DNA of 64,000 nucleotides, taken from Planctomycetaceae bacterium. GTDB taxonomy: Bacteria; Planctomycetota; Phycisphaerae; Phycisphaerales; UBA5793. A program made the translations under genes and the position numbers. Positions 29,509 to 45,604 of this stretch are shown here, piece after piece. Where the stretch lies: contig JBDZVA010000003.1 of assembly GCA_040255465.1 (NCBI GenBank), forward strand, positions 621,174-685,173, given 5' to 3'. The first letter of the stretch is position 1. The number at the start of each line of letters is the position of its first letter. Under the pieces are notes generated by a model. It saw only the letters and a list, made by a program, of their open reading frames with translations. It did not search any database and was not told where the DNA came from.

Positions 29509-30510
29509 CTACGGGCGCTCGTCGAGGAGGCGCTGGAGCGCCTGGCGGTAGTGCTCCATGGCTTTGTCGGCCTGGCCCTTCTTCTCATACACGAGGCCAA
29601 GGTAATAGTGCGTGCGGGCGGGGTCGGTGTTGAGCACGAGCGATTCGCTCAGGGTTTTTTCGGCGTCGTCGAGTTTACCGTCGTGATAGAGCAGGATGCC
29701 GCGCTGCAACTTGGCGCGGCGGCTGGCGGGTTCGGCCTTTTGCACTTCTTCGACAAGTGCCTTCGCCTCGTCGAAGCGTTCCGCTGCAATGCACAGCGAG
29801 GCCAGATCGAGGCGCGCTTCCACGTCCGTCGGATCGACTTCCAGCGCCGAGCGCAGTTCGCGCTCGGCTTGCTCGCGCAGTCCCTTTTCGCGAAGCAGGC
29901 CGGCGGCGGCGCGGTGGCGCGCTGCGCGATCGGAGGGAGTGTCGTGGTGGAAGCCCCTGGCGGTGAGATGCTCTTCCAGTTGTTTGTCATCGAGCATGCC
30001 CAGCGCGTGGCGGGCGTAGGCGTCGAGCATGTGGACGTAGTCGGGCTTGTAGCCGGCAATGACATGAGCGAGGCGCCCCTTGGCGTCAACGACGATGGTG
30101 GTGGGCAGAACGATGATGCCGAGCTTGCCGTAGAGCACGCGCTCGAAGTCGAGCCCCATCGGGCCGTGAATGCCGGCGCCGTCGCGGAAGTCGCGGAACC
30201 AGCTCGTCTGCACGACGTCGGCGGTAACGTACTGCACTTCGAGATCATCGCGCTTGAGGTCGGCAAACATCTGCTGCGACTCGACCATGACCTTGGTCGA
30301 ACTGACCTGCTGGGCGGCGACGTAGACGAGCACGAGGGCGCGCTGGCGCGTCGACGGGTTGTCGACGGGCGTGTCGCCGATCGACTTGAGCGAGTAGGTG
30401 GGGATCGGCTGGCCGATTTTGACGACGCGAAGTTCATCACCCAGCGCCGCCGCCGTGAGCCCGAGCGCGAGCGTCGGAATCAGCAGAGTGGTCCAGCGTG
30501 TGGTTCTCAT
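29509..30510 (-). CDS. Periplasmic thioredoxin-fold (no CxxC) + TPR protein
   Basis: 333 aa from ATG 30510 (signal peptide MRTTRWTTLLIPTLALGLTAAALG). The redoxin-like N-terminal half has no cysteine where the CxxC would sit (ALVLVYVAAQQVSS). The C-terminal half has TPR repeats (THYYLGLVYEKKGQADKAMEHYRQAL). The 70 aa added by the longer ORF-track start 30717 are Arg/Ser-rich. Confidence 0.7.
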   Translation of the reverse strand: MRTTRWTTLLIPTLALGLTAAALGDELRVVKIGQPIPTYSLKSIGDTPVDNPSTRQRALVLVYVAAQQVSSTKVMVESQQMFADLKRDDLEVQYVTADVVQTSWFRDFRDGAGIHGPMGLDFERVLYGKLGIIVLPTTIVVDAKGRLAHVIAGYKPDYVHMLDAYARHALGMLDDKQLEEHLTARGFHHDTPSDRAARHRAAAGLLREKGLREQAERELRSALEVDPTDVEARLDLASLCIAAERFDEAKALVEEVQKAEPASRRAKLQRGILLYHDGKLDDAEKTLSESLVLNTDPARTHYYLGLVYEKKGQADKAMEHYRQALQRLLDERP

Positions 30511-30553
30511 GGCATGCCCCTTGTCCGCGGCGAGTGGTGCCGGCGCCGCGCTG

Positions 30554-31999
30554 CTATTTCTTCTTCTCTTCGACCGGCTTGGCTGCGCCCGTCTTGCCTT
30601 CGCCCGGCCAGATCGCCGGCTTGTCGGGCGGCGGATACACGACGGGCTTGTCGCGGTTGTATTCGTACGGCACGTGGCATCCGGGCGCACACTTGCCGCC
30701 GTCGTTGAGTTTTTCAAAGTTGATCGGCAGCATCCAGCCGCCCGTGCCGAATGGCACCGAGTCGCGGATGTGGTTTTCCTTGTTGCTCGCGTGCGTTTCG
30801 TGGCAGGCGCGGCAGGTGCGGCCCTTGGTCTCTTTGTTCACGTGCAGGTAGTGCAGGTTGAGATCGCCGTTGCGGAAGTTGGTCAGCGCGGTGGTCCGCT
30901 CGTCGTGCACGACGTCTTTGTCGTGGCAGGAGAAGCACAGGGCGTAGCTCTCTTCGCGGAACGGAGCGTAGAACTGCGGCGGATACTCCTTGATGAGCAG
31001 GCGGAAGTTGCCCCCGCCGTGGATCTCGTGGCACGCGGCGCAGTTGCCCTGCGCGACGGGACCGTGCAGGCTCTTACCCGTGGCGAAGACGGCTTTCATG
31101 TTCGAGAGGTCGCGGCCGTCGGGCATCTTGATCTTGCGGTCGTGGCACTTGAGGCACAGATCCACCATGTCGGTCTTGAGGATCGACGCGAAATCAGACG
31201 CGTGCGGCTCGTGGCAGTTGAGGCATTCCTGATCGGTCGTGACCGCGGCGTGCTGCGTGGTGGCCGTGTCGACGATGTGCTTGATCGACTCGTGGCACGA
31301 GAGGCACAGCGCCTTCTTCTCTTCGTGCAGCATCATCGGATGGTCGGAGGCGTGCGGATCGTGGCAGGCCGTGCAGTCGGTGTTGACCGGGCCGTGCACG
31401 TAGCGCATCGTGTCGAGCTGTTCCTTGGTGGAGGTGTGGCACTGGATACAGAGTTCGCGTCCCTCGGTCAGCAGCAGGTGCTGATTCTTCGAACTGTGCG
31501 GCGAGTGGCAAGCCGCGCAAGCCCCGGCGGCCACCGGACCGTGGACCGATGACTTGCCGGCAAAGACGTTTTCGTGGCACTGCGAACACAGCGCCGATGG
31601 GCTCTCGGCCTTGAGCAGCAGGCGACTGGTTCCGCCGTGCGGATTGTGGCACGAGAGGCAATCGCCGGTCTTGAGCGGCTCGTGGACCGTCGTCGCGTCC
31701 TTCATATCCATTTCGTGGCAGAAGAGGCACAGATCCTTGGCCTCGCGCACGAGCGCGAAGGTGTGGTCCTTGGCGCTGACGGTGCTGTGGCAGGCATCGC
31801 ACGCGCCGACGGCGACGGGGCCGTGCGTGACGGCGTGGTCCTTGACGGCGGCGTGACAGCCGGACGTCATGCAGGACCCGGGGGCGATCTCGATGGTCGG
31901 CCTGACGTCGGGCGGCTGAATCTGAAAACCCATTCCCAGGAGCGCCACTCCCACCGTCAACATCCCCGTTCCGGCAAGCAGTCTTCGACTGAGTCTCAT
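30554..31999 (-). CDS. Multihaem c-type cytochrome, 15 haem motifs (paralog C)
   Basis: 481 aa with a signal/TM N-terminus. 13 CxxCH, plus N-terminal CMTSGCH (Cx4CH) and C-terminal CAPGCH (Cx3CH). Recurrent HGPV..G.C..CH spacing (paired-CXXCH style). The start overlaps the upstream stop by 4 nt. Confidence 0.9.
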   Translation of the reverse strand: MRLSRRLLAGTGMLTVGVALLGMGFQIQPPDVRPTIEIAPGSCMTSGCHAAVKDHAVTHGPVAVGACDACHSTVSAKDHTFALVREAKDLCLFCHEMDMKDATTVHEPLKTGDCLSCHNPHGGTSRLLLKAESPSALCSQCHENVFAGKSSVHGPVAAGACAACHSPHSSKNQHLLLTEGRELCIQCHTSTKEQLDTMRYVHGPVNTDCTACHDPHASDHPMMLHEEKKALCLSCHESIKHIVDTATTQHAAVTTDQECLNCHEPHASDFASILKTDMVDLCLKCHDRKIKMPDGRDLSNMKAVFATGKSLHGPVAQGNCAACHEIHGGGNFRLLIKEYPPQFYAPFREESYALCFSCHDKDVVHDERTTALTNFRNGDLNLHYLHVNKETKGRTCRACHETHASNKENHIRDSVPFGTGGWMLPINFEKLNDGGKCAPGCHVPYEYNRDKPVVYPPPDKPAIWPGEGKTGAAKPVEEKKK

Positions 32000-33588
32000 G
32001 GCTGACCTCCCGATTCTTTTCCATCATCGCCCGTCGTCGGTTGTTCACCTAGCGCTGGGGTTGGCTCCGGACCATCGCCCGGCTTGCGGTGATACGTCAT
32101 CGCGACGTGGCAGCCCGGCGTGCACTTGCCGCCGTCTTCCATGCGTTCAAATCCGATGGGCATCAACCACTTCGAGTTTTCAAACGGCACCTGCGAAGCG
32201 AGATGTCGCTCCTGATCGGAGCCGTGAATGGCATGGCAGGTCTTGCAGGATCGTCCCTTTTCGTCGCGGTTCACGTGGAGGTAGTGGAGGTTGCGATCCC
32301 CATCGCGGAAGTCGGTCAGTGACGTCGTCTTTTCTGAGGTGACGAGATCCTTGGGATGGCAACTGAAGCACAGCGCGTAGTCCGCGAGATCGAACTTGGC
32401 GTAGAACCCGCTGGGGAACTCCTGCTTGAGCAGTCGATTATGCGTTGAGCCGTGCACGTTGTGGCAGGCGGAGCAATCGCCGGTCTCCACGGGGCCGTGC
32501 AGGAAGCGCTTGCCGCTCACGCTCGAGGTCATGTCGGGAATGGTGCGGCCGTCCGCCGCCTTGACCGGCTGGCTGTGGCATGAGAGGCACAGCGTCGTCT
32601 GGCGATCGCGAAGCAGCTTGGGGCGGCCCGCCGCGTGCGGATCGTGGCAGTTGGCGCAGGACTCGCCGGTGAAGACCGCAGCGTGCGGCGTGGTGGCGCC
32701 GTTGATTGCTTCGCCGAGTCCGGTGTGGCAGTCGAGGCAGAGTTGTTCGATCGGCTTCTTGAGGTGAAACTCGACATCGGACGTATGCGCGCTATGGCAG
32801 GTCGTGCAATCCTGCTTGGCGGGATCATGCACGAAGGGTGCGTTGGCGATGACGTACTTGGTGTCGGTGTGACAGGTGAAGCAGTGTTCGGCGGCGTCGC
32901 CGCCCCGCAGCAGGTGGGCGTTGTTCGATTCGTGGGGCTGGTGGCACGCGGAACACTCGCCGGCGGCGTATGGACCGTGCGGGTGTTTGCCTTGATCGAG
33001 CACGTGGCACTCGACACAGGTCTCCTGTACGGTGCTCTTCACGAGCAGGAACTTGCGGCCGGCGTGCGGATCATGGCAGCCGATGCAGCCGGGCTCCTCG
33101 AGGGCGGCGTGCTTGTGCAGTTGCGTGTTGCCGGTCTGGTGGCAGAAGGAGCACGTGCTGTTTCCCTCGCGGAGAAGCGGATAGACATGTCCACCCGTGT
33201 CGGCGGCGTGACATGAGAAGCAGTCGCCAGCCGCGAGCGGGCCGTGGAGCCGGTCCGCGAGGCCGAAGTTGGCGTGGCACTCGGGAGTGATGCAGGTGGT
33301 CCCCTCAGGAAGCGCCCCAGTGGGGCGCGAGGCGGGATGGTCGGCCGCGATGAACCGGGGCGTAGCGGGTTTGACCGACGAACTCGAAGGTGAGTCCATG
33401 TACCGCATGGCGGTGTCGGCGGATCGCGAGATCGTCGCCTCTTTGGGCGGCTGGGATTTCTTGTCTTTGCATCCGCCGAGGAGGAGCAATGAGATCAGCA
33501 GCGCACTGCCGACTTCCCACGCAGCCGCCCGCCCGCGGCGCACCGGCCGCAGGTCGAGTCGCTGGACGGTGGTCGGGCGCGGGTTCAT
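31996..33588 (-). CDS. Multihaem c-type cytochrome, 15 haem motifs (paralog B)
   Basis: 530 aa. TM SALLISLLLLGG, lipobox-like GGC. 13 CxxCH plus CITPECH and CTPGCH. The C-terminal block FRDGDRNLHYLHVNRDEKGRSCKTCH...GGKCTPGCH is shared with paralogs A and C. Confidence 0.9.
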   Translation of the reverse strand: MNPRPTTVQRLDLRPVRRGRAAAWEVGSALLISLLLLGGCKDKKSQPPKEATISRSADTAMRYMDSPSSSSVKPATPRFIAADHPASRPTGALPEGTTCITPECHANFGLADRLHGPLAAGDCFSCHAADTGGHVYPLLREGNSTCSFCHQTGNTQLHKHAALEEPGCIGCHDPHAGRKFLLVKSTVQETCVECHVLDQGKHPHGPYAAGECSACHQPHESNNAHLLRGGDAAEHCFTCHTDTKYVIANAPFVHDPAKQDCTTCHSAHTSDVEFHLKKPIEQLCLDCHTGLGEAINGATTPHAAVFTGESCANCHDPHAAGRPKLLRDRQTTLCLSCHSQPVKAADGRTIPDMTSSVSGKRFLHGPVETGDCSACHNVHGSTHNRLLKQEFPSGFYAKFDLADYALCFSCHPKDLVTSEKTTSLTDFRDGDRNLHYLHVNRDEKGRSCKTCHAIHGSDQERHLASQVPFENSKWLMPIGFERMEDGGKCTPGCHVAMTYHRKPGDGPEPTPALGEQPTTGDDGKESGGQP

Positions 33589-35111
33589 TACGGCTCTTTC
33601 TCCGGTTGCTGGGGCGCGAGGCGCTTGACGATCTCCTTGCTGTTGTCGATAGAGAGACTCAGCAGCGCCGTGGCGTAGGTGACGTTGTGTACGCCGTGCG
33701 AGGTCTTGACGAACTGAACGTTCTCGGCGGCATCGTTGAAGAGCCGCTGCAGTTCCAATCGCTCAGCATCGCTGGTGATGGATGCACTCGCCATCGCGAC
33801 TCGCGCGCCTTCGACAGCCACTTCCGCCTGGGTCAGCAGTTCGCTCACCGAGTTTTTCCAGATGTCGAGCACGCCGATGTAGCGGTTGCCGTGACAGGAG
33901 TCGCAGGCTTTCTGTGCGGCGAGGTAGGTGTATCCCGATACGCCGTGCGAGGCGCCGCTGGTTTCTTCGAGGTGGCAAGCGATGCAGTCGACCTGTGCGG
34001 TGAACATTGGGCTGGGCATGCTGGGCACGCCCTGGCCGCCCGTGCCGCTGTACATCTTGGCGGGGCCCGAGTGGGTCGACTCGTGGCACTGATTGCAGCC
34101 TTCGGCATCCTCGCCGGTCTGGTGGATCGTGCCTGCGAGGGTGAGAGCCCGATTGGTATTGGCGTTGAGGTGATGCTCAATCTGCACGTGGCAGTTGGAG
34201 CACTCGATCTTGTTGTCGGTGACGTGGGCGCGGTGCATGAGTTGCGTTTCGCCGTACTTGGCGAGTTGTTGCGGCTGGTTGTGACAGGTCCAGCAGAGTT
34301 GGCGAGGCACTTCGCCGTCGCCCTTGATTGCTTCCGAGTGGCAGTTTTCGCAGGCGACCTTGCGGTCGAGGTATTCCTGGTGGTTGAAGATGCCGGTGGC
34401 CAGTCGGATGTCGCCCTTGGGGGCGCCGTGGCATGATCCGCAGCCGCCTAGAACTTCCTCATCGCGTCCGTGCTTGACGCCTTTGAAGTGGCAGGTGAAG
34501 CAGGTATCGAGCGTGACGACGAGGTGCTGACCCTGGACGATTTGCGAGTGACAGGAGACGCAACGGAGTTGCTTGCCGCGGCGCAGTTCGCCCAGATGCG
34601 GGGTGTGGTTGAAGTGGATCTTGATCGTGTCGCCGCGCTGTGTCGGCACTTCCCATTCGACGAGGCCGTCGAGCAGGCGGTGCTCATGGCATCCATCGCG
34701 CAGACAGGAGTCGTCGCGGATTTCAGCGTGCGGCTTGGAGCCGTAGGTCCGAGTGAGGTACTTGGCGACCTGGCTGCTGGCCTGCCACTTTCCCTTGAGC
34801 GTGTTCTCGAAGCCGGGTTCGAAGTGGCAGTCAACGCAGGGGACATCCTTGTGGGACGACTCGTGCCAGGCCTGGTAGTAGGGCTCCATGATGTGGCAGC
34901 CGCGGCAGAAATCCGGCTCCATCGAATACTCGGCGAAGGCCAGACTGCCGCCGACGATGATCACGACGCCGTACGCCATTTTGGCCCAGATCGTCAATCC
35001 GTACGGAAGCCAGCTCCGGTTGACGCGCTTGAGACCGAGAACTCTCCCCCATGTGGGAATCGGGGGCTTGGAATCGGGGGCCGTTTTCTCATTTTCGGCA
35101 GCAATAGTCAT
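33588..35111 (-). CDS. Membrane-anchored NapC/NirT-like multihaem cytochrome (12 haem motifs)
   Basis: N-terminal TM WAKMAYGVVIIVGGSLAFAEY followed directly by CRGCH...CVDCH as in NapC/NirT/CymA. 11 CxxCH plus CLRDGCH. ATG 35111 is preferred; ORF-track start 35180 would overlap the upstream gene by 20 nt. The stop overlaps the next start (TAATG). Confidence 0.85.
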   Translation of the reverse strand: MTIAAENEKTAPDSKPPIPTWGRVLGLKRVNRSWLPYGLTIWAKMAYGVVIIVGGSLAFAEYSMEPDFCRGCHIMEPYYQAWHESSHKDVPCVDCHFEPGFENTLKGKWQASSQVAKYLTRTYGSKPHAEIRDDSCLRDGCHEHRLLDGLVEWEVPTQRGDTIKIHFNHTPHLGELRRGKQLRCVSCHSQIVQGQHLVVTLDTCFTCHFKGVKHGRDEEVLGGCGSCHGAPKGDIRLATGIFNHQEYLDRKVACENCHSEAIKGDGEVPRQLCWTCHNQPQQLAKYGETQLMHRAHVTDNKIECSNCHVQIEHHLNANTNRALTLAGTIHQTGEDAEGCNQCHESTHSGPAKMYSGTGGQGVPSMPSPMFTAQVDCIACHLEETSGASHGVSGYTYLAAQKACDSCHGNRYIGVLDIWKNSVSELLTQAEVAVEGARVAMASASITSDAERLELQRLFNDAAENVQFVKTSHGVHNVTYATALLSLSIDNSKEIVKRLAPQQPEKEP

Positions 35112-35160
35112 GTCAGGCTCCATTCCGGACATCAGGGTGCAATTCCCGTGCCGACTGAGG

Positions 35161-37413
35161 CTAAAGAGCGCGAAGTCCACCCAGAATAATGAGTACCACC
35201 ATGCCCGTACCGACGAGCATTGCCAGCACCCCGACCACGATCGCCGCGAGCCGCTGCCAGCGCGGCGCCGGAGTTGTGCGGAACTTGTCCAGCCGGTTGC
35301 GCTCGACGAGGTGGGCGTACTCGGCAGCCCGCTCGTGCTTCATTTCCTCCTCGGGCACCCGCCCGGTGAAGATGACGTCGTCGACGGGGAATTTCTCCAG
35401 CCGCAGGTGGGCGTTGAAGAAGTGGATGGTGAAGATGAAGCCGACCGCGAGCAGCGCTTCGTAGCCGTGGACGACCATGGCGATGTTGAAGACCCAGCCC
35501 GGCAGCCAGTTGGCGACGAGTTCGGGGAACCAGAGCAACAGGCCTGAGCCACCGATGATGAACGTGCCGATGATCTCGGCCCAGTAGTCAAATTTCTCCC
35601 AGTAGGTCCAGCGACCGAAGGACGGCTTGCCGCGGCCGGTGAAGAACCAGCGCCACATGCCAAAGCAGTCTTTGACGTCCTTCCAGCGCGGGAAGAGCGA
35701 GTGCGGGCCGAAGAGCCAGCCGAGCACCGTCCTGGTCGGCCCCAGCGGGGTCGAGCGGGCCTGCTCGGCAACTTCCCGCCCGGCGCGAATCGTTCCGATG
35801 ACGTGGAGGACGAAGTTGAACATCAACATGATGGCGAAGAACCGGTGCCAGTTGCCGGCGGCATCCACGCCGCCAAAGACATCCGCAATCGTGAGCGCCC
35901 AGGGGCGATCGGAGAAGAACAGCGGAATACCGGTGAAGGTCAGGCCAAAGAAGCTGATGATGACCAGGATGTGATTGACGCGGTTGATGCGCGTGAAGCG
36001 GCGAATCGCCACCCCACCGCGATGGTCCGGTCGCGGGCCGTTGCGCTTGCGCTCGATGGACATCCGGATAAACCACATGATCGAGTGGAGACCGAAGAAC
36101 CCGAACGCGGCGGAAATGACGATGAGGAAGTAGAGCCAGACGCCGTGCAGCAGCGGATAGCGGGCGCCGTCTCGATAGTCCGCGTGCGGATCGAAGAGAG
36201 CGAAACTGGGCGTCGCATTCTCGTGGCACTTGGCGCAGACCTGGACGCGATGTTCGCCGTGCAGGGTCGAGTCCGGATCGCTGATGGGCCGGATGTCGTG
36301 TGCCCCGTGGCAGTCGCTGCAGCGTGCGGCTCGCATGGAGCCCAGCCTGGTCACCTGGCCGTGGTAGCTGGCGCGATAGGTTTCGTAGAACGTGGCTCGC
36401 CGGGTGCCCGACATCGCCGGATCGTCGTGGCACTCGCCGCACTCATTGACGATGTCGAGCATGAACGACGGTACATTGGTGCGCGTAATGCCGTGCGCGG
36501 TGTGGCAGTCGGTGCAGACCGGCGCCTTGTGCGTTTTCTGATCGCCATTGGCGAGCACTTGCGCATGCACGCTTTTGGCGTACGTTTCGTTGATCCCGAC
36601 ATGGCAGCGGCCACATGTCGTCGGCACATTGACGCGATTGACCAGCGCGCGTTCGTCGGCGGCGGGATGAATCTCGTGCGCGCCGTGGCAATCGGCACAT
36701 GTGGCGGCGACAACCAGGCCGCCTCGTGTGACCAGTTGTCCGTGAACGCTGTCAAGATAGGCCCCGACCAGCGCTTCGCCGCCCCCCTCGACCGAGGGGT
36801 TTGTGGCATGCTGCTTGTGGCAGCCGGCGCAGGTCGCGACGATGTTGATCGGATAGGTCTTTGAATTGCGATCGCGTGGTGGGAGGATGTCGTGTCCGCC
36901 GTGACAGGTGGCGCACCGTGGCGCCGGCCCGTTTCCGACGCCGGGTTTTTCGGCGTGCACGCCCCGCACGAACGCCGCGCCCTCCGAAGTGTGACACCCA
37001 GAGGTCGTACAGGAAGCGGGCTGAAGCGTCTGGCCATGGGGTAACGCGGCAGCATCCACATGGCACTGCACGCACGAAAGAGTTGAGTGTTCGGGGAAAG
37101 GCATCTGTTCGGCTGAAAGGAAGAGCCCCGGCCGGGTCGGAGGCTCGTCCGGTCCCGGCAGGTTTTCGCGATCGGCCTGTCCGATCATCGACCGTCGCTC
37201 GAACGGATCGAGTGTGGCGATGTGGGCCTGCCCGTGGCAGTTCAGGCAGCGGCGGTTGTCGGCCGGCGTCGGGGCCGGTTGCGCACCAACGGATCCAACG
37301 GCCCACATCCAGGCGCTCAACCCAACCAGAAACACAATGGCGCGGGAAACCACACGAGACTTCGACCGCTCAGCGCGGCAGCGCTTTTCGATCTTGTTTC
37401 TCAACACCTTCAC
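35161..37413 (-). CDS. Fusion: periplasmic 11-haem c-type cytochrome + multi-TM b-type cytochrome domain (CbcL-like architecture)
   Basis: 750 aa with a GTG start and signal peptide. 10 CxxCH plus CTTSGCH in the first ~400 aa. Then come 5-6 hydrophobic helices with conserved His (LHSIMWFI, VNHILVIISFFG, NWHRFFAIMLMFNFVLHVIG, MVVHGYEALL, IHFFNAHL), resembling FdnI/HydC-type cytochrome b. Confidence 0.8.
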   Translation of the reverse strand: MKVLRNKIEKRCRAERSKSRVVSRAIVFLVGLSAWMWAVGSVGAQPAPTPADNRRCLNCHGQAHIATLDPFERRSMIGQADRENLPGPDEPPTRPGLFLSAEQMPFPEHSTLSCVQCHVDAAALPHGQTLQPASCTTSGCHTSEGAAFVRGVHAEKPGVGNGPAPRCATCHGGHDILPPRDRNSKTYPINIVATCAGCHKQHATNPSVEGGGEALVGAYLDSVHGQLVTRGGLVVAATCADCHGAHEIHPAADERALVNRVNVPTTCGRCHVGINETYAKSVHAQVLANGDQKTHKAPVCTDCHTAHGITRTNVPSFMLDIVNECGECHDDPAMSGTRRATFYETYRASYHGQVTRLGSMRAARCSDCHGAHDIRPISDPDSTLHGEHRVQVCAKCHENATPSFALFDPHADYRDGARYPLLHGVWLYFLIVISAAFGFFGLHSIMWFIRMSIERKRNGPRPDHRGGVAIRRFTRINRVNHILVIISFFGLTFTGIPLFFSDRPWALTIADVFGGVDAAGNWHRFFAIMLMFNFVLHVIGTIRAGREVAEQARSTPLGPTRTVLGWLFGPHSLFPRWKDVKDCFGMWRWFFTGRGKPSFGRWTYWEKFDYWAEIIGTFIIGGSGLLLWFPELVANWLPGWVFNIAMVVHGYEALLAVGFIFTIHFFNAHLRLEKFPVDDVIFTGRVPEEEMKHERAAEYAHLVERNRLDKFRTTPAPRWQRLAAIVVGVLAMLVGTGMVVLIILGGLRAL

Positions 37414-37425
37414 AATGCACCCGCC

Positions 37426-39084
37426 TCACGACCCGTGCTCCCGGTCGAGGAAAGAAGACTTGTAGTACACGAGTAACCCCGAGAAGATCAGCAGCAACGC
37501 GACCGCAGCCAAACCGACAACGGTCTGCTCGCGCTGCTGTCGCCGCAACCGCTCAATCAGTTCGTGCGTGGCCTGAATCCGATCCACGCCATCACGAATC
37601 TCGGTTGCAAAGTTATTGATCTCCCGCATATTGAAGCTGTGAAAGACCTGCCGCAGGCGTGAATTGACTTCCGCCGCGTTGTGCTGCGCCTGCTCGAGGG
37701 AGAGATTGCGATACCCCCACTCAGAGAGGTCGGTGCTCAGCTCGGTGGAGAGGTCGACCTGCTCTTCCGTCTTGATGAGGATGTCCTTGATCCGCTTGAC
37801 AGACTCCATGGTCGCGGCCCGGTGGCAGGGCGAGCAGCGACCGCCCTCCGATCGCGATCGGGTGTCGATAATGTCCGGCGAAGGTTGGGTGATCTTGTGA
37901 CTGCCCTGGCCGTGGCAATAAAGACAGGTCGGGTCGCCGAAGTCACCGTGCGGGCTGCCCAGGTGCTTTTCCTTGATGTCGGCGTGGCACTTGCCGCAGA
38001 AGTAAGATACGGCTCGACCTCGCGTCTCGCTCACAAACTCGCGATCGTTGAGGTAAGTCACCAGGAAGTCGGTTTGGCGCTCGAGATGCGCCGCTCGCTT
38101 GAATGCGTCGTCCGATTCGAACTGGTCGCGCCGCAGCATCGCGTTGCCGCCGTGGCAACCGTCACAGCCGACGTTGGCGGCGAAGTGCACGCTGTGCTTC
38201 CACTCGAGTTCGACGATCTCACTTGAACGCCCGGAGAGATTCATGTGGCACTGGACGCAGTTGTTCCTGGCGTATGGATCCTCGCCATAGCCTTCAGCCT
38301 GCTCGGGCGTCGCACCCGGTTCAGCCGGCGGACTGGCGTTTGCTCTCGTTGTCTGCACGACGATGGCGGTCAACCCCACCAGCAGCCACAGGCCGTGGTG
38401 TTTCATAGCGCCGCTCAGTGGTTTGGGAGCGGTCCCGGATGGATCCTGGGAGGGCGTCGGTGCGCCGCCGTTCTCGCGATAGAGAACCTTGCGGATCGCG
38501 CGCCGCTCGTGCGCCACGAGTACGTAGAAGACCAGAATCGCGATCCCCGTGAAGATGAAGAACATCGGATGATGCGCGAAGTATTCGCTGATCGGCGCGA
38601 GACGCTCGCCCTCGGCGGTCATCGTCTCGGGCCAGCCGCCCCAGAAGGTAAAGACGATCGCCAACGCGGCGACCAGTGTGACCGCGATGCGGTAGAACCA
38701 CGTCGGCCTGGTGCGGGCCCGCAGCCCTCGATACCAGAATGGAAGCAGCACGATCACGATGATCACGGGCCCCTGGCTCAACACGCCCCATGTCTTGCCG
38801 CTCAGGCCCAGCAGCGTGGTGGGCCACACACGCAAGTACTGGTATACCGCCAGGAAGTACCATTCAGGCTTGATCCCGACTGGCGTTGAGCCGTGCGGGT
38901 TGGCCGGCTGCTCCTCATGCGCCAGGCCGTGCAGCCCGAGCATGTCCAGCAGAACCGGCAGCGTGACCAGGAACATGATGATCGCCAGGCAGATGAGCAC
39001 TGACACGGTCATCTTGATGATCTCATTGGGCCAGAACGGCTCCAACTGATCCGGCTCGTATTGCTCGCGGTAGTCGACGCCCAT
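37426..39084 (-). CDS. Fusion: cytochrome b C-terminal / subunit IV-like domain + pentahaem c-type cytochrome
   Basis: Starts MGVDYREQYEPDQLEPFWPNEI...KPEWYFLAVYQYLR (PEWY quinol-site motif), with 3-4 TM helices. Then CVQCH, CDGCH, CGKCH, CLYCH, CSPCH and a C-terminal TM. The upstream 253 codons of track ORF 37426..39843 overlap cytochrome b out of frame and are rejected. Confidence 0.8.
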   Translation of the reverse strand: MGVDYREQYEPDQLEPFWPNEIIKMTVSVLICLAIIMFLVTLPVLLDMLGLHGLAHEEQPANPHGSTPVGIKPEWYFLAVYQYLRVWPTTLLGLSGKTWGVLSQGPVIIVIVLLPFWYRGLRARTRPTWFYRIAVTLVAALAIVFTFWGGWPETMTAEGERLAPISEYFAHHPMFFIFTGIAILVFYVLVAHERRAIRKVLYRENGGAPTPSQDPSGTAPKPLSGAMKHHGLWLLVGLTAIVVQTTRANASPPAEPGATPEQAEGYGEDPYARNNCVQCHMNLSGRSSEIVELEWKHSVHFAANVGCDGCHGGNAMLRRDQFESDDAFKRAAHLERQTDFLVTYLNDREFVSETRGRAVSYFCGKCHADIKEKHLGSPHGDFGDPTCLYCHGQGSHKITQPSPDIIDTRSRSEGGRCSPCHRAATMESVKRIKDILIKTEEQVDLSTELSTDLSEWGYRNLSLEQAQHNAAEVNSRLRQVFHSFNMREINNFATEIRDGVDRIQATHELIERLRRQQREQTVVGLAAVALLLIFSGLLVYYKSSFLDREHGS

Positions 39085-39128
39085 CGGCGTGTCCTTCCCT
39101 TGGCCGCCGAGTGTTCGGCGGTGGCCTC

Positions 39129-39800
39129 TTACAGAGGCTTTGAAATACCCGTCCGGCGGATCATGACAAAGTGCAGTCCCATGAACGAACTCATGATCGC
39201 CGGCAGAATCCAGATGTGCAACGAGAAGAAGAACCCCAACGTCTCGCCGCTGATTGCTTTGCCCCGCCGCACCCACTCCACGATGTCCTGGCCGAAGTAT
39301 GGAACCGCGCTGGGAATCTCCGTTCCGACTTTGGCGCCCCAGTAGCTCAGTTGGGTCCAGGGCAGGAGGTAGCCGGTGAAGGCCATCATCGTCGTGAGCA
39401 GGAGCAGAAACACGCCGCTGACCCAGTGCAGTTCGCGCGGCGTCCGGTAGATCTTGTAGTAGGCGATGCGGGCCATGTGCATGAGCACGAGGGTGATCAT
39501 CAGGTTCGCCGCGACGGCGTGGATGCGCTGCACGAGCCAGCCCATGGTCACGTTTGACTTGATAAACGTCACGCTGTCCCAGGCAGCGTCCGGGTGCGGC
39601 TTGTAGTACATGAGCAGCAGCATGCCGGTGAAGACCTGCACAAGGAAGGTAAAGAACGCCAGTCCGCCGAAGCAGCCCGCCCACGACAAGGTGCGCGGCA
39701 CCCACTTTTTGGTGACGTTCTTTTCCAACTCCGGCGTCACGTCGAAGCGTTCGTCGATCCAGCCGTAGATATAGCGAATCACCCGCATGTCCCGCCTCAC
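39129..39800 (-). CDS. Cytochrome b (b6-type, N-terminal four-helix domain)
   Basis: 223 aa. Haem ligand pairs RIHAVAANLMITLVLMH (H-x13-H) and LHIWILPAIMSSFMGLH (H-x14-H). ATGA overlap with the Rieske stop. Confidence 0.9.
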   Translation of the reverse strand: MRRDMRVIRYIYGWIDERFDVTPELEKNVTKKWVPRTLSWAGCFGGLAFFTFLVQVFTGMLLLMYYKPHPDAAWDSVTFIKSNVTMGWLVQRIHAVAANLMITLVLMHMARIAYYKIYRTPRELHWVSGVFLLLLTTMMAFTGYLLPWTQLSYWGAKVGTEIPSAVPYFGQDIVEWVRRGKAISGETLGFFFSLHIWILPAIMSSFMGLHFVMIRRTGISKPL

Positions 39801-40255
39801 GAAATGATGAGTATTCCGTCCTTGACTTCGAAGGGCACTTCACGCAGCGGCGCGCTCACCGGCCCACTCACGACCTTGCCTTCGCCGCTGAACACGGCTC
39901 CGTGGCAGGGGCAGTGGAAGTTGCCGTGGGCGATATCCCACACGACGTTGCAGCCCAAGTGCGTACAAGACGCGTCGAAGACGCGCGGGCCGTCCTCGGC
40001 CATGACCACGATGACCTGCTGCCCCTGGAAGTCGGCGTAGTACGCCTGGCCGACGGTCAGCCGCTCAAGTTCGAGCTCAACGGGTTTGGATTCTCCGACC
40101 CGCATCGGGAGCTTCAGGAACGCCACGATCGGATACACCACGGTTCCCACGGTAATGGCCGCAGCCGAGCCGATGCACACTTGGCAGAATCGACGCCGGC
40201 CGTTGCTGACCGGTTCGTGCGAATGATCATGTTCGTGTTCATGCGCCATCGTCAT
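39797..40255 (-). CDS. Rieske 2Fe-2S protein
   Basis: CTHLGCNVVW...HCPCHGAVF cluster-binding boxes. N-terminal RRRFCQVCIGSAAAI is Tat-like/TM. TAATG overlap with the upstream stop. Confidence 0.9.
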   Translation of the reverse strand: MTMAHEHEHDHSHEPVSNGRRRFCQVCIGSAAAITVGTVVYPIVAFLKLPMRVGESKPVELELERLTVGQAYYADFQGQQVIVVMAEDGPRVFDASCTHLGCNVVWDIAHGNFHCPCHGAVFSGEGKVVSGPVSAPLREVPFEVKDGILIIS

Positions 40256-41280
40256 TACTCCGCGCTCTGGCGTTCCAACAGCAATTCGGCCGCCCGTTTG
40301 AAACTCGCCGCCGCTTCGGGCATCTTCTCGCGCTGTTCGTAGATCAATCCGAGCAGGTAGTGCGCCCGGGGCTGAGATGGATCCCGATCGAGCACGTCAC
40401 GTACGAGCCGCTCGGCTTCCGTCAGTTCATCGCCGCCGCGCACGGCCTGCACGTAGGCGACGCCAAGTGTGGCTTCCACCATGTTGGGGTTGCTTGCCAG
40501 CACGGCACGGAACTGCTTTTCCGCGTCCGCGATGCGATGGCGTTTGAGATTGAGCCGGCCCAGACCGAGGCGAGCTTCAATGCTGTCTGGCCAGAGCGTC
40601 AGCGCCTCGTGGTACTTTTCATCGGCCATCTCGTCGAGGCCGCGTCGCCCCAGTTGGCGCGCCAGCTGGGTGATGCGATTGGCGCGAATCTGCTCTTCGG
40701 TCAACGAGCTCTCGTTGGACGGATGGAGCGATTCGTCAAATCGTTCCGGACTCAGCCGCCCGAGCCCGACGAGCAGCGCATCGGTGAGGACCTCGTCGAA
40801 GCGCGGCATCAGTCCCGCCATGCTGTAGATGATCTTGCCGTCCTTGCCCACGACCACGACCGTGGGCATGACGCTCACGCGGTACGCCTCGAACGCCTTG
40901 CGATCCGGGTCGTGCAGGATCAGTCCCGCGAGCCCCAGCGACTCAGCCTGTGTTTTCAGATCCAGTCGCGATGCATTCTGCGCGACGATGAGAATTGGCG
41001 TAATGGTGTCGCCCGCCAGCCGGGGGTCGTTGAGTACGCGATTGATTTCAGCGCAGCCCTGGCGCGTCGGCTGGTGGTAGAGTTCGCCGAAGATCAGCAC
41101 CGAGGGCCGATCCTTGACTCGAGCGGAATCAAAGGCGTTGCCATCCAGATCGGAGAGCGCCAGCACTGGCGCTTGTGAGCCGCGCGGCGGAATGGCGCCG
41201 AGCGAGTCCGACGCCACACCCATACTCGCCATCAGAACGGCACAGCCAACAACGCGTGACGCGGTCAGGCGGAGTCTCAT
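40255..41280 (-). CDS. Periplasmic thioredoxin-fold (degenerate active site) + TPR protein
   Basis: 341 aa from ATG 41280 (signal peptide MRLRLTASRVVGCAVLMASMGVASD). The TlpA/redoxin-like region has only a single Cys at the active-site position (LIFGELYHQPTRQGC). C-terminal TPRs (AHYLLGLIYEQREKMPEAAASFKRAAEL). ATGA overlap with the upstream cytochrome. Confidence 0.7.
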   Translation of the reverse strand: MRLRLTASRVVGCAVLMASMGVASDSLGAIPPRGSQAPVLALSDLDGNAFDSARVKDRPSVLIFGELYHQPTRQGCAEINRVLNDPRLAGDTITPILIVAQNASRLDLKTQAESLGLAGLILHDPDRKAFEAYRVSVMPTVVVVGKDGKIIYSMAGLMPRFDEVLTDALLVGLGRLSPERFDESLHPSNESSLTEEQIRANRITQLARQLGRRGLDEMADEKYHEALTLWPDSIEARLGLGRLNLKRHRIADAEKQFRAVLASNPNMVEATLGVAYVQAVRGGDELTEAERLVRDVLDRDPSQPRAHYLLGLIYEQREKMPEAAASFKRAAELLLERQSAE

Positions 41281-42695
41281 GGACCGCCTCCCTTCGACGG
41301 ATTCGCTTCCGATGGACTCTGCAATTCGCCGCGGGCGTAGGATCGCTCCACATGGCACCCCGGCGCGCAACGCCCGCCATCGGGCAGTGCTTCAAAGTTG
41401 ATCTCCAGCATCCATCCGCTCGATCCAAACGGCACGGCTTCGCGGATGTGGAACGGCCGCTTGGATGCATGCACTTCGTGGCAAGCCCGGCAGGTGCGCC
41501 CCTTTTCCTGATCCACGTGCAGGTTGTGGAGATTGGACCCGCCATCGCGGAATCGAGTGACGCCAACGCCCGACTTGCTCGTCACCATCTCGGGCAGATG
41601 GCAGGTGAAGCACAACGCGTAGCGATTGATCTCGAACGCAGCGTAGAACTCCGGTGGATACGGCTTCACAAGCAGATTTGCATTCGCACTCTCGTGCGGC
41701 TGATGGCAGGATGAACACGATCCCGCCCGGATCGGACCATGGTGGTCCGGCGAGTCGTGCAGCAGCAGCGCCATATTGGTCAGGGTCCGACCGCTGTCGG
41801 TCCTGATGGACTTGTCGTGGCACGACAGGCAGGTATCAGGCTCAGGCTTCTTCTGAAGATTCGGCAGCATCGAGGAGTGCGGCGAGTGGCATCCGGTGCA
41901 ACCGTTGGCCTGGTGAACGGCGCCGTGTACGACCGCCGCCGAACTGATAAGGTCCATCAGTTTTTCATGGCAGGTGGCGCAGAGTTCATCGGTCGGAGCG
42001 CGAAGCATGAACTGGTTCGGAGAAGCGTGCGGATTGTGACACGTCGTGCAACCCTGCTGCATCGCCTCGTGGACGTGCAGGCCCATGCCGCTTTGCTCGA
42101 CCTCCGCATGGCAGTCCGCACACAGTTCGTTCGTGTCCTTCACCAGCAGGTTCGGCTTCCACGACGAGTGCGGCTCATGACAGAGAATGCACGCTCCAGC
42201 GGCGACCGGGCCGTGCACGTGCTCGTCAGGTTTCTCTTCGTGCATATGGCAACTCAGACACAACCCCTTGGTGGGGTCGGCGACGAGCATCATGCGGTAC
42301 TCTGAGCCGTGCGGATCGTGACAACCCGTGCACTGGCCGTTGGCCACGGGTCCGTGCACAACGGTGCGGTGTTCCATCAGGTGGCAGGTGGAGCAAAGTT
42401 CGTCCTGCTTGATGGTCTTGAATCGATGGTCGCGTGGCTCTTCGTACTGGTGGCAGGCTTCGCACTTCTGCTGCGCCACCGGGCCGTGGACAAACTTGTG
42501 GTCGCGCTTAGCGGCGTGGCAGCCCTCGGCGGCACAGGTGTCCACCGCCGTGGTCGGCTTGGGCAGGGGCGGGACATCGCCGGCCAGACTTGTTCGAGTC
42601 ATGATCAGCCCGAAAAGTCCGATAGCCGCTGCCACTGATGACAAACGGCTCCATGAATACGGGTTTTCGCGGTGTCTCGACAATGCAGCCTCCAT
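41277..42695 (-). CDS. Multihaem c-type cytochrome, 15 haem motifs (paralog A; first gene of operon)
   Basis: 472 aa with signal/TM VAAAIGLFGLIM. 13 CxxCH plus CAAEGCH and CAPGCH. Same C-terminal block as paralogs B and C (FRDGGSNLHNLHVDQEKGRTCRACH...GGRCAPGCH). Confidence 0.9.
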   Translation of the reverse strand: MEAALSRHRENPYSWSRLSSVAAAIGLFGLIMTRTSLAGDVPPLPKPTTAVDTCAAEGCHAAKRDHKFVHGPVAQQKCEACHQYEEPRDHRFKTIKQDELCSTCHLMEHRTVVHGPVANGQCTGCHDPHGSEYRMMLVADPTKGLCLSCHMHEEKPDEHVHGPVAAGACILCHEPHSSWKPNLLVKDTNELCADCHAEVEQSGMGLHVHEAMQQGCTTCHNPHASPNQFMLRAPTDELCATCHEKLMDLISSAAVVHGAVHQANGCTGCHSPHSSMLPNLQKKPEPDTCLSCHDKSIRTDSGRTLTNMALLLHDSPDHHGPIRAGSCSSCHQPHESANANLLVKPYPPEFYAAFEINRYALCFTCHLPEMVTSKSGVGVTRFRDGGSNLHNLHVDQEKGRTCRACHEVHASKRPFHIREAVPFGSSGWMLEINFEALPDGGRCAPGCHVERSYARGELQSPSEANPSKGGGP

Positions 42696-42712: not shown

Positions 42713-42729
42713 ATGCACGTTTCATGCCA
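42713..42729 (-). promoter_or_regulatory. Candidate sigma54 (-24/-12) promoter for the cytochrome operon
   Basis: Minus strand reads TGGCATGAAACGTGCAT against the consensus TGGCACG-N4-TTGCW, with 2 mismatches and correct GG-N10-GC spacing. Caveat: the predicted TSS (~42703) leaves only ~8 nt of leader and lies downstream of the GAAGGAG. Confidence 0.35.
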
Positions 42730-43612: not shown

Positions 43613-43755
43613 CGACCACGCAACAGCTTGCCCAATCCATCTCCGCCTCGCACCTCGCACCGGCCCTCCCGACTTTTGGGTGGGCTGGTCGAGTACAATT
43701 CGCCGTCCCGTCCCGCCCGGATGCTGACCGGGCCTGGTTCAACGTGCGAGATTCG

Positions 43756-45126
43756 ATGCCCAAGTCCATACTTATTGCCGAAGACGAACAGGTGCTGCGC
43801 GAGTCGCTGGCCGAACTGTTGACCCAGGAGGGCTACGAAGTCGTCGCGACCGGCGATGGCAAAGAGGCTCAGGCCATGGCTCTCGAGCGGTCCTTTGACC
43901 TTGTCATTTCGGACATTCGCATGCCCGAGATGGACGGCATCACGCTGCTGCATCACCTCGCGCGACTGGCGCCACAAACCCCCGTGATCATGCTCACGGC
44001 CTTCGGCACTGTCGACAGCGCCGTCAAGGCCATGCAGACCGGGGCGGTCGACTACCTGCTCAAGCCCGTTCAATTCGACGATCTTCTTCTTCGCATCAAC
44101 CGGGCCATCGAGCACGGCGAGATGGTCCGCAGCCATCGGCGCATGACCGACCAACTTGCCGCCGAAGGCTCGTTTCACAATCTCGTGGGCGAATCACCCG
44201 GCATGAAGCGACTTTTTGGCCTGGTTCACAAACTTGCCACGGTCAAGAGCAGCGTGCTGCTGCTGGGCGAATCAGGTACGGGCAAAGAACTCTTCGCCCG
44301 CGCCATTCATTACAACGGCATCACGCGCGACAAGCCCTTCGTCGCCGTCAACTGCGGCGCCATTCCCGAGAGCCTGATTGCGTCAGAACTCTTTGGCCAC
44401 CGCAAGGGTTCATTCACGGGCGCGACGGCGGACCGGGCCGGCTACTTCGAGGCGGCCAACGGAGGCACGCTGTTTCTGGATGAAATCTCCACCCTGCCGC
44501 TCGCCACGCAAAGCATGCTGCTGCGGGTGCTCGAAGAGCGCGTCGTGGTTCCCGTCGGAGACACGAAGCCCCGGGCCGTTGATGTTCGCATCATCGCCGC
44601 GACCAATCGCGATCTGCGCACCATGGTCGCCGCGGGCGAGTTTCGGGAAGACGTGATGTATCGCCTCGACGTGGTGAAACTGGAACTCCCGCCGCTGCGC
44701 CATCGGCGCGAAGACATCCCGCTGCTCGTACACCATTTTCTGCAGAAGTACGCCACGCAGATGAGCAAGCGCGTGCCAGGCGTCACCAACGGCGCGATGC
44801 GGGCCCTGCTCAACCATGACTGGCCGGGCAACATCCGCGAACTCGAAAACGTGATTGAACGCGCCGTCATCTTCACCGATGGCGATGAACTCGGCGTGGA
44901 CGATCTCCCGTTCCAGAGTGTGGAAGATGACGAACCGGGCGAAGAGCTGCGCGAGGCGCTCCGTCAGTTCGAACGCCAGCACATTCTCTACTGCCTTCGG
45001 CGGCACGACTTCGACAAGAACAAGACGGCCGAGCAACTCGGCATCGGCCTGTCGAGCCTCTATCGAAAGATGGATGAACTCGGCATCGCCAAGCAGCCCG
45101 ACGAGTCGCCGGACAAAGCGACCTAA
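43756..45126 (+). CDS. Sigma54-dependent two-component response regulator (NtrC family)
   Basis: REC domain (ILIAEDE...[14 protein letters not shown]...LKP). AAA+ domain with Walker A GESGTGKE and the sigma54-contact motif GSFTGA (GAFTGA variant). C-terminal HTH ([21 protein letters not shown]). Confidence 0.9.
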
Positions 45127-45530
45127 AACAGCAACTTGAACAGGTAATCCAGCCGGCCGCGCAGCACAATGCGTTTGCCCGACTCGCGCATGACCTTGCG
45201 AATCTGCGCGCGGTAGGTTGGGTGATAGCAGTGGGTCGGGCAGTGCTTGCACGCGGGCTTTGGATTGAAGGGGCAGGTGGTCCGCTTGACCCACGCGTGG
45301 GCGAGCAGTTTTGAGCATTCGGGACAGAGGATCAGCGGCCGGCGCGTCACTCCGGCAAGCCCCTCCGCCACGAACTCGGACTTGTCGCTTTCTCGATTTT
45401 GGTGATTTGCCTTGCAGTACATCTCAATAAAGAGACCCAGCATGCGCAGGTCTTTGCGGAGTTTCCGGTCCTTCAGAACCTCTGACGCCAGTACGGGCAG
45501 CCGAAATGAGCGATTTGCCGTCGAGATCAT
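45123..45530 (-). CDS. YgbA_NO family protein (nitrous oxide-stimulated promoter family)
   Basis: LILCPECSKLLAHAWVKRTTCPFNPKPACKHCPTHCYHPTYRAQIRKVMRESGKRIV closely parallels the E. coli YgbA motif KPACKQCPVHCYQP. Convergent with the response regulator, overlapping it by 4 nt. The start (45530 or the downstream ATG encoding MLGLFIEMYC) is uncertain. Confidence 0.7.
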   Translation of the reverse strand: MISTANRSFRLPVLASEVLKDRKLRKDLRMLGLFIEMYCKANHQNRESDKSEFVAEGLAGVTRRPLILCPECSKLLAHAWVKRTTCPFNPKPACKHCPTHCYHPTYRAQIRKVMRESGKRIVLRGRLDYLFKLLF

Positions 45531-45604
45531 GCCGTTCCTCGGAAATCGCGTTTGCAAATCCCGTGCCGCCCTCCTCTGGCGCGCCGTTTGTAGGGCATTA
45601 CCCG

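Follow-up and report, generated by a model that had tools for sequence, protein, structure and literature searches.

A Phycisphaerales gene cluster predicted to link three types of quinone-interacting module to multihaem cytochromes

How the quinone pool is wired to multihaem cytochromes is largely unknown beyond Geobacter and Shewanella, and so is the way in which energy is conserved as the potential of the acceptor falls. In Geobacter, ImcH (GSU3259), CbcL (GSU0274) and CbcBA (GSU0593-4) are documented potential-specific quinol oxidases encoded at separate loci, and cbcBA is sigma-54-dependent, with an RpoN-dependent response regulator. Here we describe a cluster of ten tightly packed minus-strand genes (29509-42695) in a 64,000-nt stretch of DNA (the window; G+C ~63%) from a Planctomycetaceae bacterium of the lineage Phycisphaerales, UBA5793 (contig JBDZVA010000003.1 of GCA_040255465.1, positions 621,174-685,173). 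The cluster encodes a Rieske/cytochrome b complex, a CbcL-like protein and a 12-haem NapC/NirT/NrfH-type protein, hereafter NapC12, among 15-haem cytochromes. We read it as a sigma-54-controlled respiratory cluster in which three parallel and separable quinone modules would feed periplasmic multihaem cytochromes, serving as "gears" according to the potential of the acceptor, and we put the probability of this reading at roughly 0.45. Unlike the window, the Geobacter inner-membrane quinol oxidoreductase loci have no adjoining Rieske/b complex, whereas the control of cbcBA by sigma-54 and its own regulator resembles the promoter elements and NtrC-type regulator described below.

The ten genes, in the direction of transcription, are the following.

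41277..42695, minus strand: MHC472, 15 haem motifs, 472 aa, first gene of cassette A (Pfam Paired_CXXCH_1, 220.7 bits)
40255..41280, minus strand: redoxin-fold and TPR protein of cassette A (Pfam AhpC-TSA/Redoxin, TPR; likely start MRLRLTAS)
39797..40255, minus strand: Rieske 2Fe-2S protein, 152 aa (Pfam Rieske, 44.4 bits)
39129..39800, minus strand: cytochrome b6, the N-terminal half of a split cytochrome b, 223 aa (Pfam Cytochrome_B, 185 bits)
37426..39084, minus strand: subunit IV-pentahaem c fusion, 552 aa (Pfam Cytochrom_B_C, 44.4 bits)
35161..37413, minus strand: CbcL-like protein (Pfam Ni_hydr_CYTB, 31.3 bits)
33588..35132, minus strand: NapC12, with 12 haem motifs (Pfam Cytochrom_NNT, 39.7 bits)
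31996..33588, minus strand: 15-haem-motif cytochrome with a lipoprotein-type signal (LLLGGC), 530 aa (Pfam Paired_CXXCH_1, 189.5 bits)
30554..31999, minus strand: MHC481, 15-haem-motif cytochrome, 481 aa (Pfam Paired_CXXCH_1, 233.8 bits)
29509..30510, minus strand: redoxin-fold and TPR protein of cassette B (Pfam AhpC-TSA, TPR; likely start MRTTRWTT)

Genes overlap by 1-4 nt or are separated by gaps of 12-44 nt. Cassette A comprises a 15-haem cytochrome, a redoxin-TPR protein, the Rieske protein, b6, subunit IV and the pentahaem cytochrome; cassette B comprises the CbcL-like protein, NapC12, two 15-haem cytochromes and a redoxin-TPR protein. The two cassettes, joined in tandem to give the ten-gene cluster, have separate ancestries, and a 15-haem cytochrome and a redoxin-TPR protein belong to each. 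A preliminary description of this DNA had covered the middle five genes (33588-40255), which do lie on the minus strand at the coordinates given there, and every one of its domain assignments passes a profile test; the limits that it set to the cluster have to be moved outward to 29509-42695. The ten-gene order is repeated in independent assemblies (loci L003, L004, L009, L010 and L012). An assembly chimera or a chance adjacency was rejected, since the arrangement is shared by independent assemblies and by genomes of different phyla.

The nearest precedent for a Rieske/b complex amid multihaem cytochromes is Cbc6/ExtMNOPQS of Geobacter (GSU2930-2935), one conserved cluster that encodes a Rieske protein, a b6-like cytochrome b, a small membrane subunit and cytochromes of 12, 10 and 2-4 haems, and that is tied to an extracytoplasmic reductase system. 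The b6 of the window scores 218.6 bits on the ExtP model NF040969, below the 290-bit cutoff and equal to the generic b6 score. The window is without the rhodanese, porin and ExtKL/MccSep selenoprotein of Cbc6/Ext, whereas Cbc6/Ext is without a CbcL-like or NrfH-type gene. No porin or cytochrome-maturation gene was found by Pfam among the 20 open reading frames (ORFs) flanking the cluster. The preliminary description had held that such modules are encoded at separate loci in characterised organisms, which is true of Geobacter but not of Rhodoferax ferrireducens, where a single cluster holds two cymA genes, the CbcL homologue mtrH, mtrABC and multihaem cytochromes and so, like the window, combines NapC/NirT-type with CbcL-type quinol modules. 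The R. ferrireducens cluster differs in its MtrABC porin-cytochrome and tetrahaem CymA, and it contains neither a Rieske/b complex nor a 12-haem fusion. A literature search yielded nothing that describes the present cluster, the NapC12 fusion or the modular partners of NapC12.

The three modules are combined variously in relatives. When one genome per species was scanned, 367 NapC12 relatives were found; the counts given here rest on the best 80 loci (35 from Planctomycetota and 45 from other lineages, including Elusimicrobia, Omnitrophota, Acidobacteriota, Desulfobacterota-type bacteria, Riflebacteria, Eisenbacteria, Tectomicrobia, Gemmatimonadales and others), with neighbours counted within 10 kb. 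The top genome match, Phycisphaerales bacterium UBA5793, has a NapC12 of 88% identity and the same ten-gene order. A gene with a CbcL-like b domain lies near NapC12 in 61 of the 80 loci, directly upstream on the same strand in 44, and a Rieske protein with cytochrome b in 23/80. Both b-type modules are found together in 18/80, which come from Planctomycetota, Omnitrophota, Elusimicrobia, Deltaproteobacteria, Blastocatellia and a "Clostridia" metagenome-assembled genome (MAG). Among the 34 loci with full flanks, the CbcL-like gene is present in 31 and all three module types of the window in 10. Cassette B without Rieske/b occurs in many Phycisphaerae (L001, L002, L005), cassette A is added upstream of it in others (L003, L007), and in L033 and L034 the two cassettes are transcribed divergently. 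In L008, cassette A is followed directly by NapC12, with no CbcL-like gene.

Near NapC12 in 16/80 loci stands a fourth quinone-interacting type, the NrfCD-type module, which consists of a tetrahaem cytochrome, a Fer4_11 protein (NrfC/PsrB-like, with a twin-arginine translocation signal) and an NrfD-family membrane protein; 14 of these 16 loci are outside Planctomycetota (L041, L043, L047-L049, L055, L060, L062, L069, L071, L073, L077, L079 and L081-L083; e.g., L048:11809-14874). The CbcL-like, Rieske/b and NrfCD modules all stand near NapC12 in 4/80 loci. A trio of genes adjoins the cluster in 12-15 Planctomycetota loci, including L010, L015, L016, L018-L020, L022, L025, L030, L032, L038 and L039 of the Phycisphaerae (e.g., L018:17266-20363). 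Its products are a cytochrome with 5 haems, a beta-propeller of NHL repeats and a protein of 668 aa whose C-terminus reads RRTF; this third protein has no Pfam match and is a candidate outer-membrane barrel. Locus L010 (WYBR01000109.1) bears the title "Vicinamibacteraceae bacterium PLA1" (Acidobacteriota). Its ten-gene order is nevertheless that of the Phycisphaerales clade, and its NapC12 shares 72% identity with the NapC12 of the window, so that the acidobacterial label is likely a taxonomic mislabel or a binning error. In a 2.27-Mb Phycisphaerae contig (L002:12123-13641), two ORFs stand in place of NapC12, apparently through a split or a frameshift, and the pair of 15-haem genes is merged into one (912 aa); the cassette may be decaying or undergoing remodelling in this lineage.

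Regulatory genes are encoded upstream of the cluster, and three elements of the sigma-54 type were identified in the window.

42714..42729, minus strand: sigma-54-type -24/-12 element TGGCATGAAACGTGCA, 19 nt upstream of the MHC472 start
35138..35153, minus strand: sigma-54-type element CGGCACGGGAATTGCA, within the 3' end of the CbcL-like gene and just upstream of NapC12
45553..45568, minus strand: sigma-54-type element CGGCACGGGATTTGCA, upstream of the YgbA_NO-family gene
43744..45126, plus strand: NtrC-type sigma-54-dependent response regulator, transcribed divergently from the cluster (receiver, AAA+ with GESGTGKE and helix-turn-helix in its translation)
45123..45530, minus strand: YgbA_NO-family small Cys-rich protein (Pfam YgbA_NO, 64.7 bits)
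45506..48078, plus strand: two sensor kinases by Pfam, HAMP-HisKA (45506-46720) and PilS-like with six transmembrane helices and HisKA-HATPase (46717-48078)

The elements at 35138-35153 and 45553-45568 are identical at 15 of 16 positions. The informative sigma-54 evidence is the strict -24/-12 pattern, of which ~0.2 matches are expected per 21-kb locus by our estimate from base composition, together with its positional conservation in relatives; a loose pattern allowing 2 mismatches is unenriched across the window (34 matches versus 31 expected). L009 and L011 have an equivalent of the 42714-42729 element before their first cytochrome gene, and the element at the junction of the CbcL-like gene and NapC12 is also found in L009, L010 and L012. 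In eight relatives an element stands just upstream of the CbcL-like gene, seven of them having cassette B alone; the eighth, L019, has both cassettes in tandem, each with its own sigma-54-type element. Homologues of the regulator in L001 and L003 carry Pfam Response_reg, Sigma54_activat and HTH_8, the sensor-kinase pair also precedes the cluster in relatives, and the YgbA_NO-family gene stands beside the regulators in L001, L002, L005 and L008 as well. Within the cluster, a sigma-70 scan gave one promoter-like site against 2.3 expected, and a scan for intrinsic terminators gave no convincing one at gene ends. Because of the sigma-54-type elements and the adjacent NtrC-type regulator, the genes plausibly form one sigma-54 regulon with more than one start point. 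The single co-transcribed operon of the preliminary description thus survives as a plausible regulon, but one transcript is too simple in view of the divergent cassettes in L033 and L034 and the element next to NapC12. Nitrogen-oxide sensing may be connected with the cluster through the YgbA_NO-family gene, which is flanked by the genes of the sigma-54 activator and of the sensor kinases.

These data bear on whether the Rieske/b6/subunit IV-pentahaem proteins, the CbcL-like protein, NapC12 and the 15-haem cytochromes form one obligate supercomplex, bound together by the TPR proteins. The ten genes are tightly packed and translationally coupled, two of the products are of the TPR scaffold type, the three modules of the window stand together in 18 loci of several phyla, and Hmc-type complexes of Desulfovibrio combine two kinds of membrane subunit. 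Nevertheless, each b-type module is absent from many relatives that retain the rest, and each occurs without the other, which disfavours the "single mega-complex" raised at the outset. Independent gain and loss of modules, divergent cassettes in L033 and L034, the separate sigma-54-type elements of L019 and the internal promoter-like element before NapC12 in the window all argue against an obligate complex, which we regard as quite improbable.

The reading that we prefer is that of parallel modules. In bc complexes electrons pass through a Q-cycle, NrfH oxidises quinol at the periplasmic face, and FdnI transfers electrons across the membrane from or to a quinone site on the cytoplasmic side. 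By these likenesses, a quinone pool, presumably of menaquinone, would be linked to periplasmic multihaem cytochromes by three entry modules. The Rieske/b6/subunit IV proteins with their membrane-anchored pentahaem c subunit would be expected to run a Q-cycle; the dihaem b domain of the CbcL-like protein would conduct electrons through the membrane, toward or away from a quinone site close to its cytoplasmic face; and NapC12 would act at the periplasmic face as an NrfH-type quinol dehydrogenase fused to an NrfA/OcwA-like pentahaem module. All three would pass electrons to the paralogous 15-haem cytochromes, which the non-catalytic redoxin-TPR proteins probably accompany as scaffolds or assembly factors. 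The residues of the quinone sites and the haem ligands are conserved, which suggests that each module is functional, and since the predicted yield of protons or charge per electron differs among the modules, they would most likely act as gears among which a cell can choose when it oxidises quinol with extracytoplasmic acceptors that differ in potential. Here we infer the quinone type, the direction of electron flow, the energy yields, the acceptor and the protein contacts; potential-dependent routing, a purely inferential step made by analogy with ImcH, CbcL and CbcBA of Geobacter, would be the most attractive reading.

Several points weigh against parallel gears. All 80 NapC12 loci come from MAGs. 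CbcL homologues have also been proposed as quinone reductases in Fe(II) oxidisers, and the adjacency of the CbcL-like gene and NapC12 in 44 loci could equally mean that the two work in series or in one complex. The NrfA/OcwA-like module of NapC12 might be catalytic rather than a relay. Homologues of the trio seen beside the cluster in other Planctomycetota (5-haem cytochrome, NHL propeller and putative barrel) were sought in the whole 64-kb window and none was found, which leaves the cluster there with no outer-membrane conduit.

The CbcL-like protein consists of a signal peptide, a periplasmic domain with 11 haem motifs (10 CXXCH and an invariant CX4CH, C135-TTSG-C140-H141) and a six-helix dihaem cytochrome b of the FdnI fold. 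Its membrane domain exceeds the Pfam Ni_hydr_CYTB cutoff (31.3 versus 30.1 bits) and is also matched by formate dehydrogenase gamma models (TIGR01583, E=5e-11). In the AlphaFold model (mean predicted local distance difference test, pLDDT, 76) there are six transmembrane helices, and the sole strong fold match found by Foldseek in the PDB is FdnI (1kqf_C; probability 1.00, TM-score 0.78, root-mean-square deviation 3.7 A). Pfam, TIGR01583 and the structural comparison thus bear out the suggested fusion of a multihaem c to an FdnI/HydC-like cytochrome b, and with it the assignment of the membrane domain to a b-type family. His481, His523, His537, His649 and His664 are conserved among 61 CbcL-like homologues, His481/523/649/664 standing in what we take to be the FdnI-like pattern of haem ligands. 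Beyond these four, two further histidines lie in transmembrane helices, His537, 95% conserved across phyla, and His443, in an extra first helix and invariant among 41 Phycisphaerae sequences; they could mark a quinone site or an added cofactor.

Geobacter CbcL has the same layout, a periplasmic multihaem c domain followed by a six-helix dihaem b domain, as had been proposed from the first; the likeness is one of architecture, and the window protein has 11 motifs where Geobacter CbcL binds nine haems c, so that it departs from the nine-CXXCH pattern. At least 2,899 CbcL-like homologues were found at E<=1e-5, and among the best 120 those with a named source are MAG proteins of Planctomycetota/Phycisphaerae. 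Surveys have noted CbcL homologues in Planctomycetes and Phycisphaerae. Since CbcL/MtoC homologues occur in Fe(II) oxidisers, and since the source environments in the record titles include iron-rich groundwater, Lac Pavin and deep mines, the cluster could be imagined to take up electrons from extracellular Fe(II), reduced humics or a partner cell, with the Rieske/b complex working backwards as a quinone reductase, like the uphill branch in acidophilic iron oxidisers. This is very improbable: a boreal-lake survey reported putative proteins of oxidative extracellular electron transfer in only 3 of 139 operational taxonomic units of Phycisphaerae, members of the class are described as heterotrophic degraders of complex carbon, and the window contains no Cyc2/MtoA-type oxidase or carbon-fixation genes.

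NapC12 has 11 CXXCH motifs and one CX4CH in ~510 aa, and all 12 are about 96-100% conserved in 81 family sequences from many phyla. It clears the Pfam Cytochrom_NNT cutoff (39.7 versus 24.1 bits), and its start as called agrees with P0241. The family profile matches NrfH (2j7a_C, E=7e-11) over the transmembrane helix and the first two haems, including the CXXCHXM motif (CHIM), whose Met98 is 100% conserved, whereas residues 252-502 match OcwA of Thermincola (6i5b, E=7e-17). Its layout is therefore one transmembrane helix, an NrfH-like quinol-dehydrogenase module, three linker haems, an NrfA/OcwA-like pentahaem module and a three-helix bundle. The preliminary description had called it a NapC/NirT-like anchor expanded to 12 haem motifs. 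The motif count and the homology of 33588..35111 agree with the Cytochrom_NNT and NrfH matches, but the protein is not only an anchor, as its C-terminal half is the NrfA/OcwA-type module with helix bundle. The AlphaFold (AF2) model has a pLDDT of 62 and is poor in the haem core, with helices 421-505 above 90; its top Foldseek matches (TvNiR/octahaem nitrite reductases, MccA, NrfA and NrfH) only corroborate the profile result, the model being of low confidence. Annotation pipelines call the protein "NapC/NirT family cytochrome c" or "tetrahaem subunit", which hides the 12-haem fusion.

NapC12 differs from each of the described proteins that it resembles. In Desulfovibrio vulgaris NrfHA, to whose NrfH the N-terminal helix and the first two haems align, Nrf consists of two separate proteins, whereas NapC12 is a single 12-haem polypeptide with three extra haems in between. 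Haems 5-9 and the helix bundle of OcwA (Thermincola potens), its NrfA-like module, align with the last five haems and the bundle of NapC12; OcwA, however, is a Gram-positive cell-surface protein with no membrane anchor. Geobacter ImcH likewise has a NapC/NirT-like region, but it combines three transmembrane helices with seven haems, and NapC12, with one helix, 12 haems and the NrfA/OcwA-like module, is not of that type. The TIGR03153 (48 versus 134.2) and TIGR02161 cutoffs are not reached, and the size is not that of a tetrahaem or pentahaem protein. NapC12 was also compared with the 12-haem ExtM of Geobacter, an identity rejected because NCBIfam NF040943 matches neither NapC12 of the window nor any of five homologues taken from other phyla. 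In Syntrophaceae, Smithella and Thermodesulfobacteriota (L041, L046, L060 and L062; e.g., L046:1854-4052), NapC12 has a C-terminal extension and 18 haem motifs, and an Omnitrophica NapC12 (L054) has 15.

The OcwA-like half raises the question of whether NapC12, a 12-haem fusion, may itself be a terminal reductase. If so, its eighth haem would be catalytic for nitrite, nitric oxide (NO) or hydroxylamine, and its electrons would come from the other modules, acting as alternative quinol dehydrogenases. OcwA has a pentacoordinate haem 5 and is a reductase of nitrite and hydroxylamine; the top folds include NrfA, MccA and octahaem nitrite reductases, and the invariant His370 of NapC12 aligns with the distal HH motif of OcwA. 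In the same direction point the YgbA_NO-family gene, a conserved neighbour with a near-identical sigma-54-type element, and the NrfCD-type module flanking NapC12 in 16 loci. Nevertheless, the CXXCK motif is absent from NapC12. Lys131, ten further histidines and Met392 are at least 96% conserved in the 81 sequences, and with ten conserved histidines and Met392 as distal ligands, haems 2-12 could all be six-coordinate with none to spare. A catalytic haem is possible, then, but not indicated by the ligand pattern. The haem core, where an active-site pocket would lie, is poorly modelled (pLDDT 62), and the 30 to 45 extra haems of the 15-haem cytochromes are hard to explain for a reductase of soluble substrates. 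On balance we hold the catalytic role improbable.

Another way to join the two central genes is in series. The CbcL-like protein, fed by periplasmic cytochromes and running in the direction of FdnI, would reduce quinone electrogenically at the cytoplasmic face, and NapC12 would re-oxidise the quinol on the periplasmic side and pass electrons by way of its NrfA/OcwA-like module to an acceptor, the pair forming a self-contained energy-conserving loop from a periplasmic or extracellular donor to an acceptor. It would fit the position of the CbcL-like gene, which in 44 of its 61 loci directly precedes NapC12 and is transcribed in the same direction, the FdnI fold of the b domain with its conserved histidines, the quinone reduction proposed for CbcL/MtoC/MtrH homologues in Fe(II) oxidisers, and the methionine of the NrfH CXXCHXM motif retained in NapC12. 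The large multihaem domains of both proteins face the same periplasm, however, so that the donor and acceptor chains would be prone to short-circuit; a single quinone pool would require a large potential gap between donor and acceptor; and no donor enzyme, such as a hydrogenase or formate dehydrogenase, is encoded nearby. We consider such a loop unlikely.

In the Rieske protein, both cluster-binding boxes (C97-T-H-L-G-C102 and C115-P-C-H118) were found, 97-100% conserved in 29 homologues, and its N-terminus carries a twin-arginine-like motif, RRRF. Cytochrome b6 aligns end to end with Chlamydomonas b6 (1q90_B, E=1e-51) and has all four haem-ligand histidines, His94/His108 and His195/His210, conserved across phyla. 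Its Cys43 is opposite Cys35 of the Chlamydomonas protein, presumably the attachment site of haem ci, and is accordingly a candidate cysteine for covalent haem ci judging by the alignment. The subunit IV part of the fusion protein matches cytochrome b C-terminal halves and b6f subunit IV in the PDB and contains P73-E-W-Y (PEWY being 88-96% conserved among homologues), followed by five CXXCH motifs and a C-terminal transmembrane helix at 521-539. Pfam and motifs thus agree with the first account of this complex as a Rieske protein and split b6-type cytochrome b whose PEWY-bearing subunit IV is fused to a membrane-anchored pentahaem c. A genomic survey and review describes Phycisphaerales as using alternative complex III and lacking Rieske/cytochrome bc1. 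For this reason we regard the Rieske/b complex as a dedicated addition rather than a housekeeping complex III, and the published survey needs the correction that some Phycisphaerales do encode a dedicated Rieske/b complex.

The fusion itself is recent and clade-restricted by its distribution in homologues: full-length fused homologues are limited to about a dozen protein clusters (P0121-P0132), and most relatives encode subunit IV (~217 aa) and the pentahaem cytochrome (~318 aa) by two genes with a 4-nt overlap. Residues 232-551 align to a standalone 318-aa cytochrome, P0159, from its residue 4 on, and the former signal peptide of the cytochrome is kept inside the fusion (aa 227-250, ending ANA). 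This segment may be an extra transmembrane helix or may still be cleaved, in which case the product would be processed into two proteins. The true start of the gene is the ATG at 39084; the N-terminal 253 codons of an 805-aa ORF (37426-39843) were rejected as spurious, a high-G+C artefact overlapping b6 in another frame. In Bacillus QcrC, subunit IV of a split cytochrome b is joined to a c-type cytochrome. The fusion noted early on as recalling QcrC and the anammox systems is real, but it differs from QcrC in having five haems rather than one, a C-terminal anchor and the retained internal signal peptide. Rieske/b complexes of anammox planctomycetes are likewise tied to multihaem (or HAO-like) proteins, and their HAO-like and NAD(P)-linked subunits are absent from the window.

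The three 15-haem proteins are paralogues, 38-44% identical to one another (MHC472 versus MHC481, 44%), and so are the redoxin-TPR proteins at 40255-41280 and 29509-30510, the latter kept in relatives as the last gene of cassette B. Both TPR proteins match the redoxin fold only (AhpC-TSA at 28-29 bits), and a CXXC active site of the ResA/CcmG type was sought in both and not found. Consequently, they are probably scaffolds or assembly factors rather than thiol oxidoreductases.

That this module set recurs among uncultured members of about ten lineages of phylum rank suggests a flexible respiratory toolkit not described so far. A wider proposal, which we find somewhat unlikely, is that NapC12 is the hub of an unrecognised respiratory system in those lineages, combined with up to three kinds of module (CbcL-like, Rieske/b and NrfCD). 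If it were true, one regulon would let cells shift their energy yield with the potential of the acceptor, or run a quinone redox loop, and the cluster of Phycisphaerales, which carries the subunit IV-pentahaem fusion, would count among the derived forms. NapC12 with interchangeable partners would then be a candidate for the wiring of the quinone pool in Planctomycetota, Elusimicrobia, Omnitrophota, Acidobacteriota, Desulfobacterota and other uncultured lineages, whose habitats include groundwater, sediments and anammox reactors.

Some other genes of the window deserve mention. Directly downstream of the cluster (26933-29427, minus strand) are encoded a 503-aa secreted repeat protein with a weak DUF3466 match and a 285-aa protein whose C-terminus resembles a PEP-CTERM sorting signal, PAPGSMVLLGLGGLAMRRRRR; neither gene is conserved beside the cluster in relatives. 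Two adjacent 460-aa ORFs with no Pfam match (51719-54483, plus strand) are followed by a DNA methylase gene (N6_N4_Mtase; 54539-55366, plus strand), and the region 51719-55366 may be a restriction-modification or defence-related island. At 58737-61688 on the minus strand is the gene of an unusually long flagellar cap protein FliD (983 aa), which contains an internal Flagellin_IN motif.

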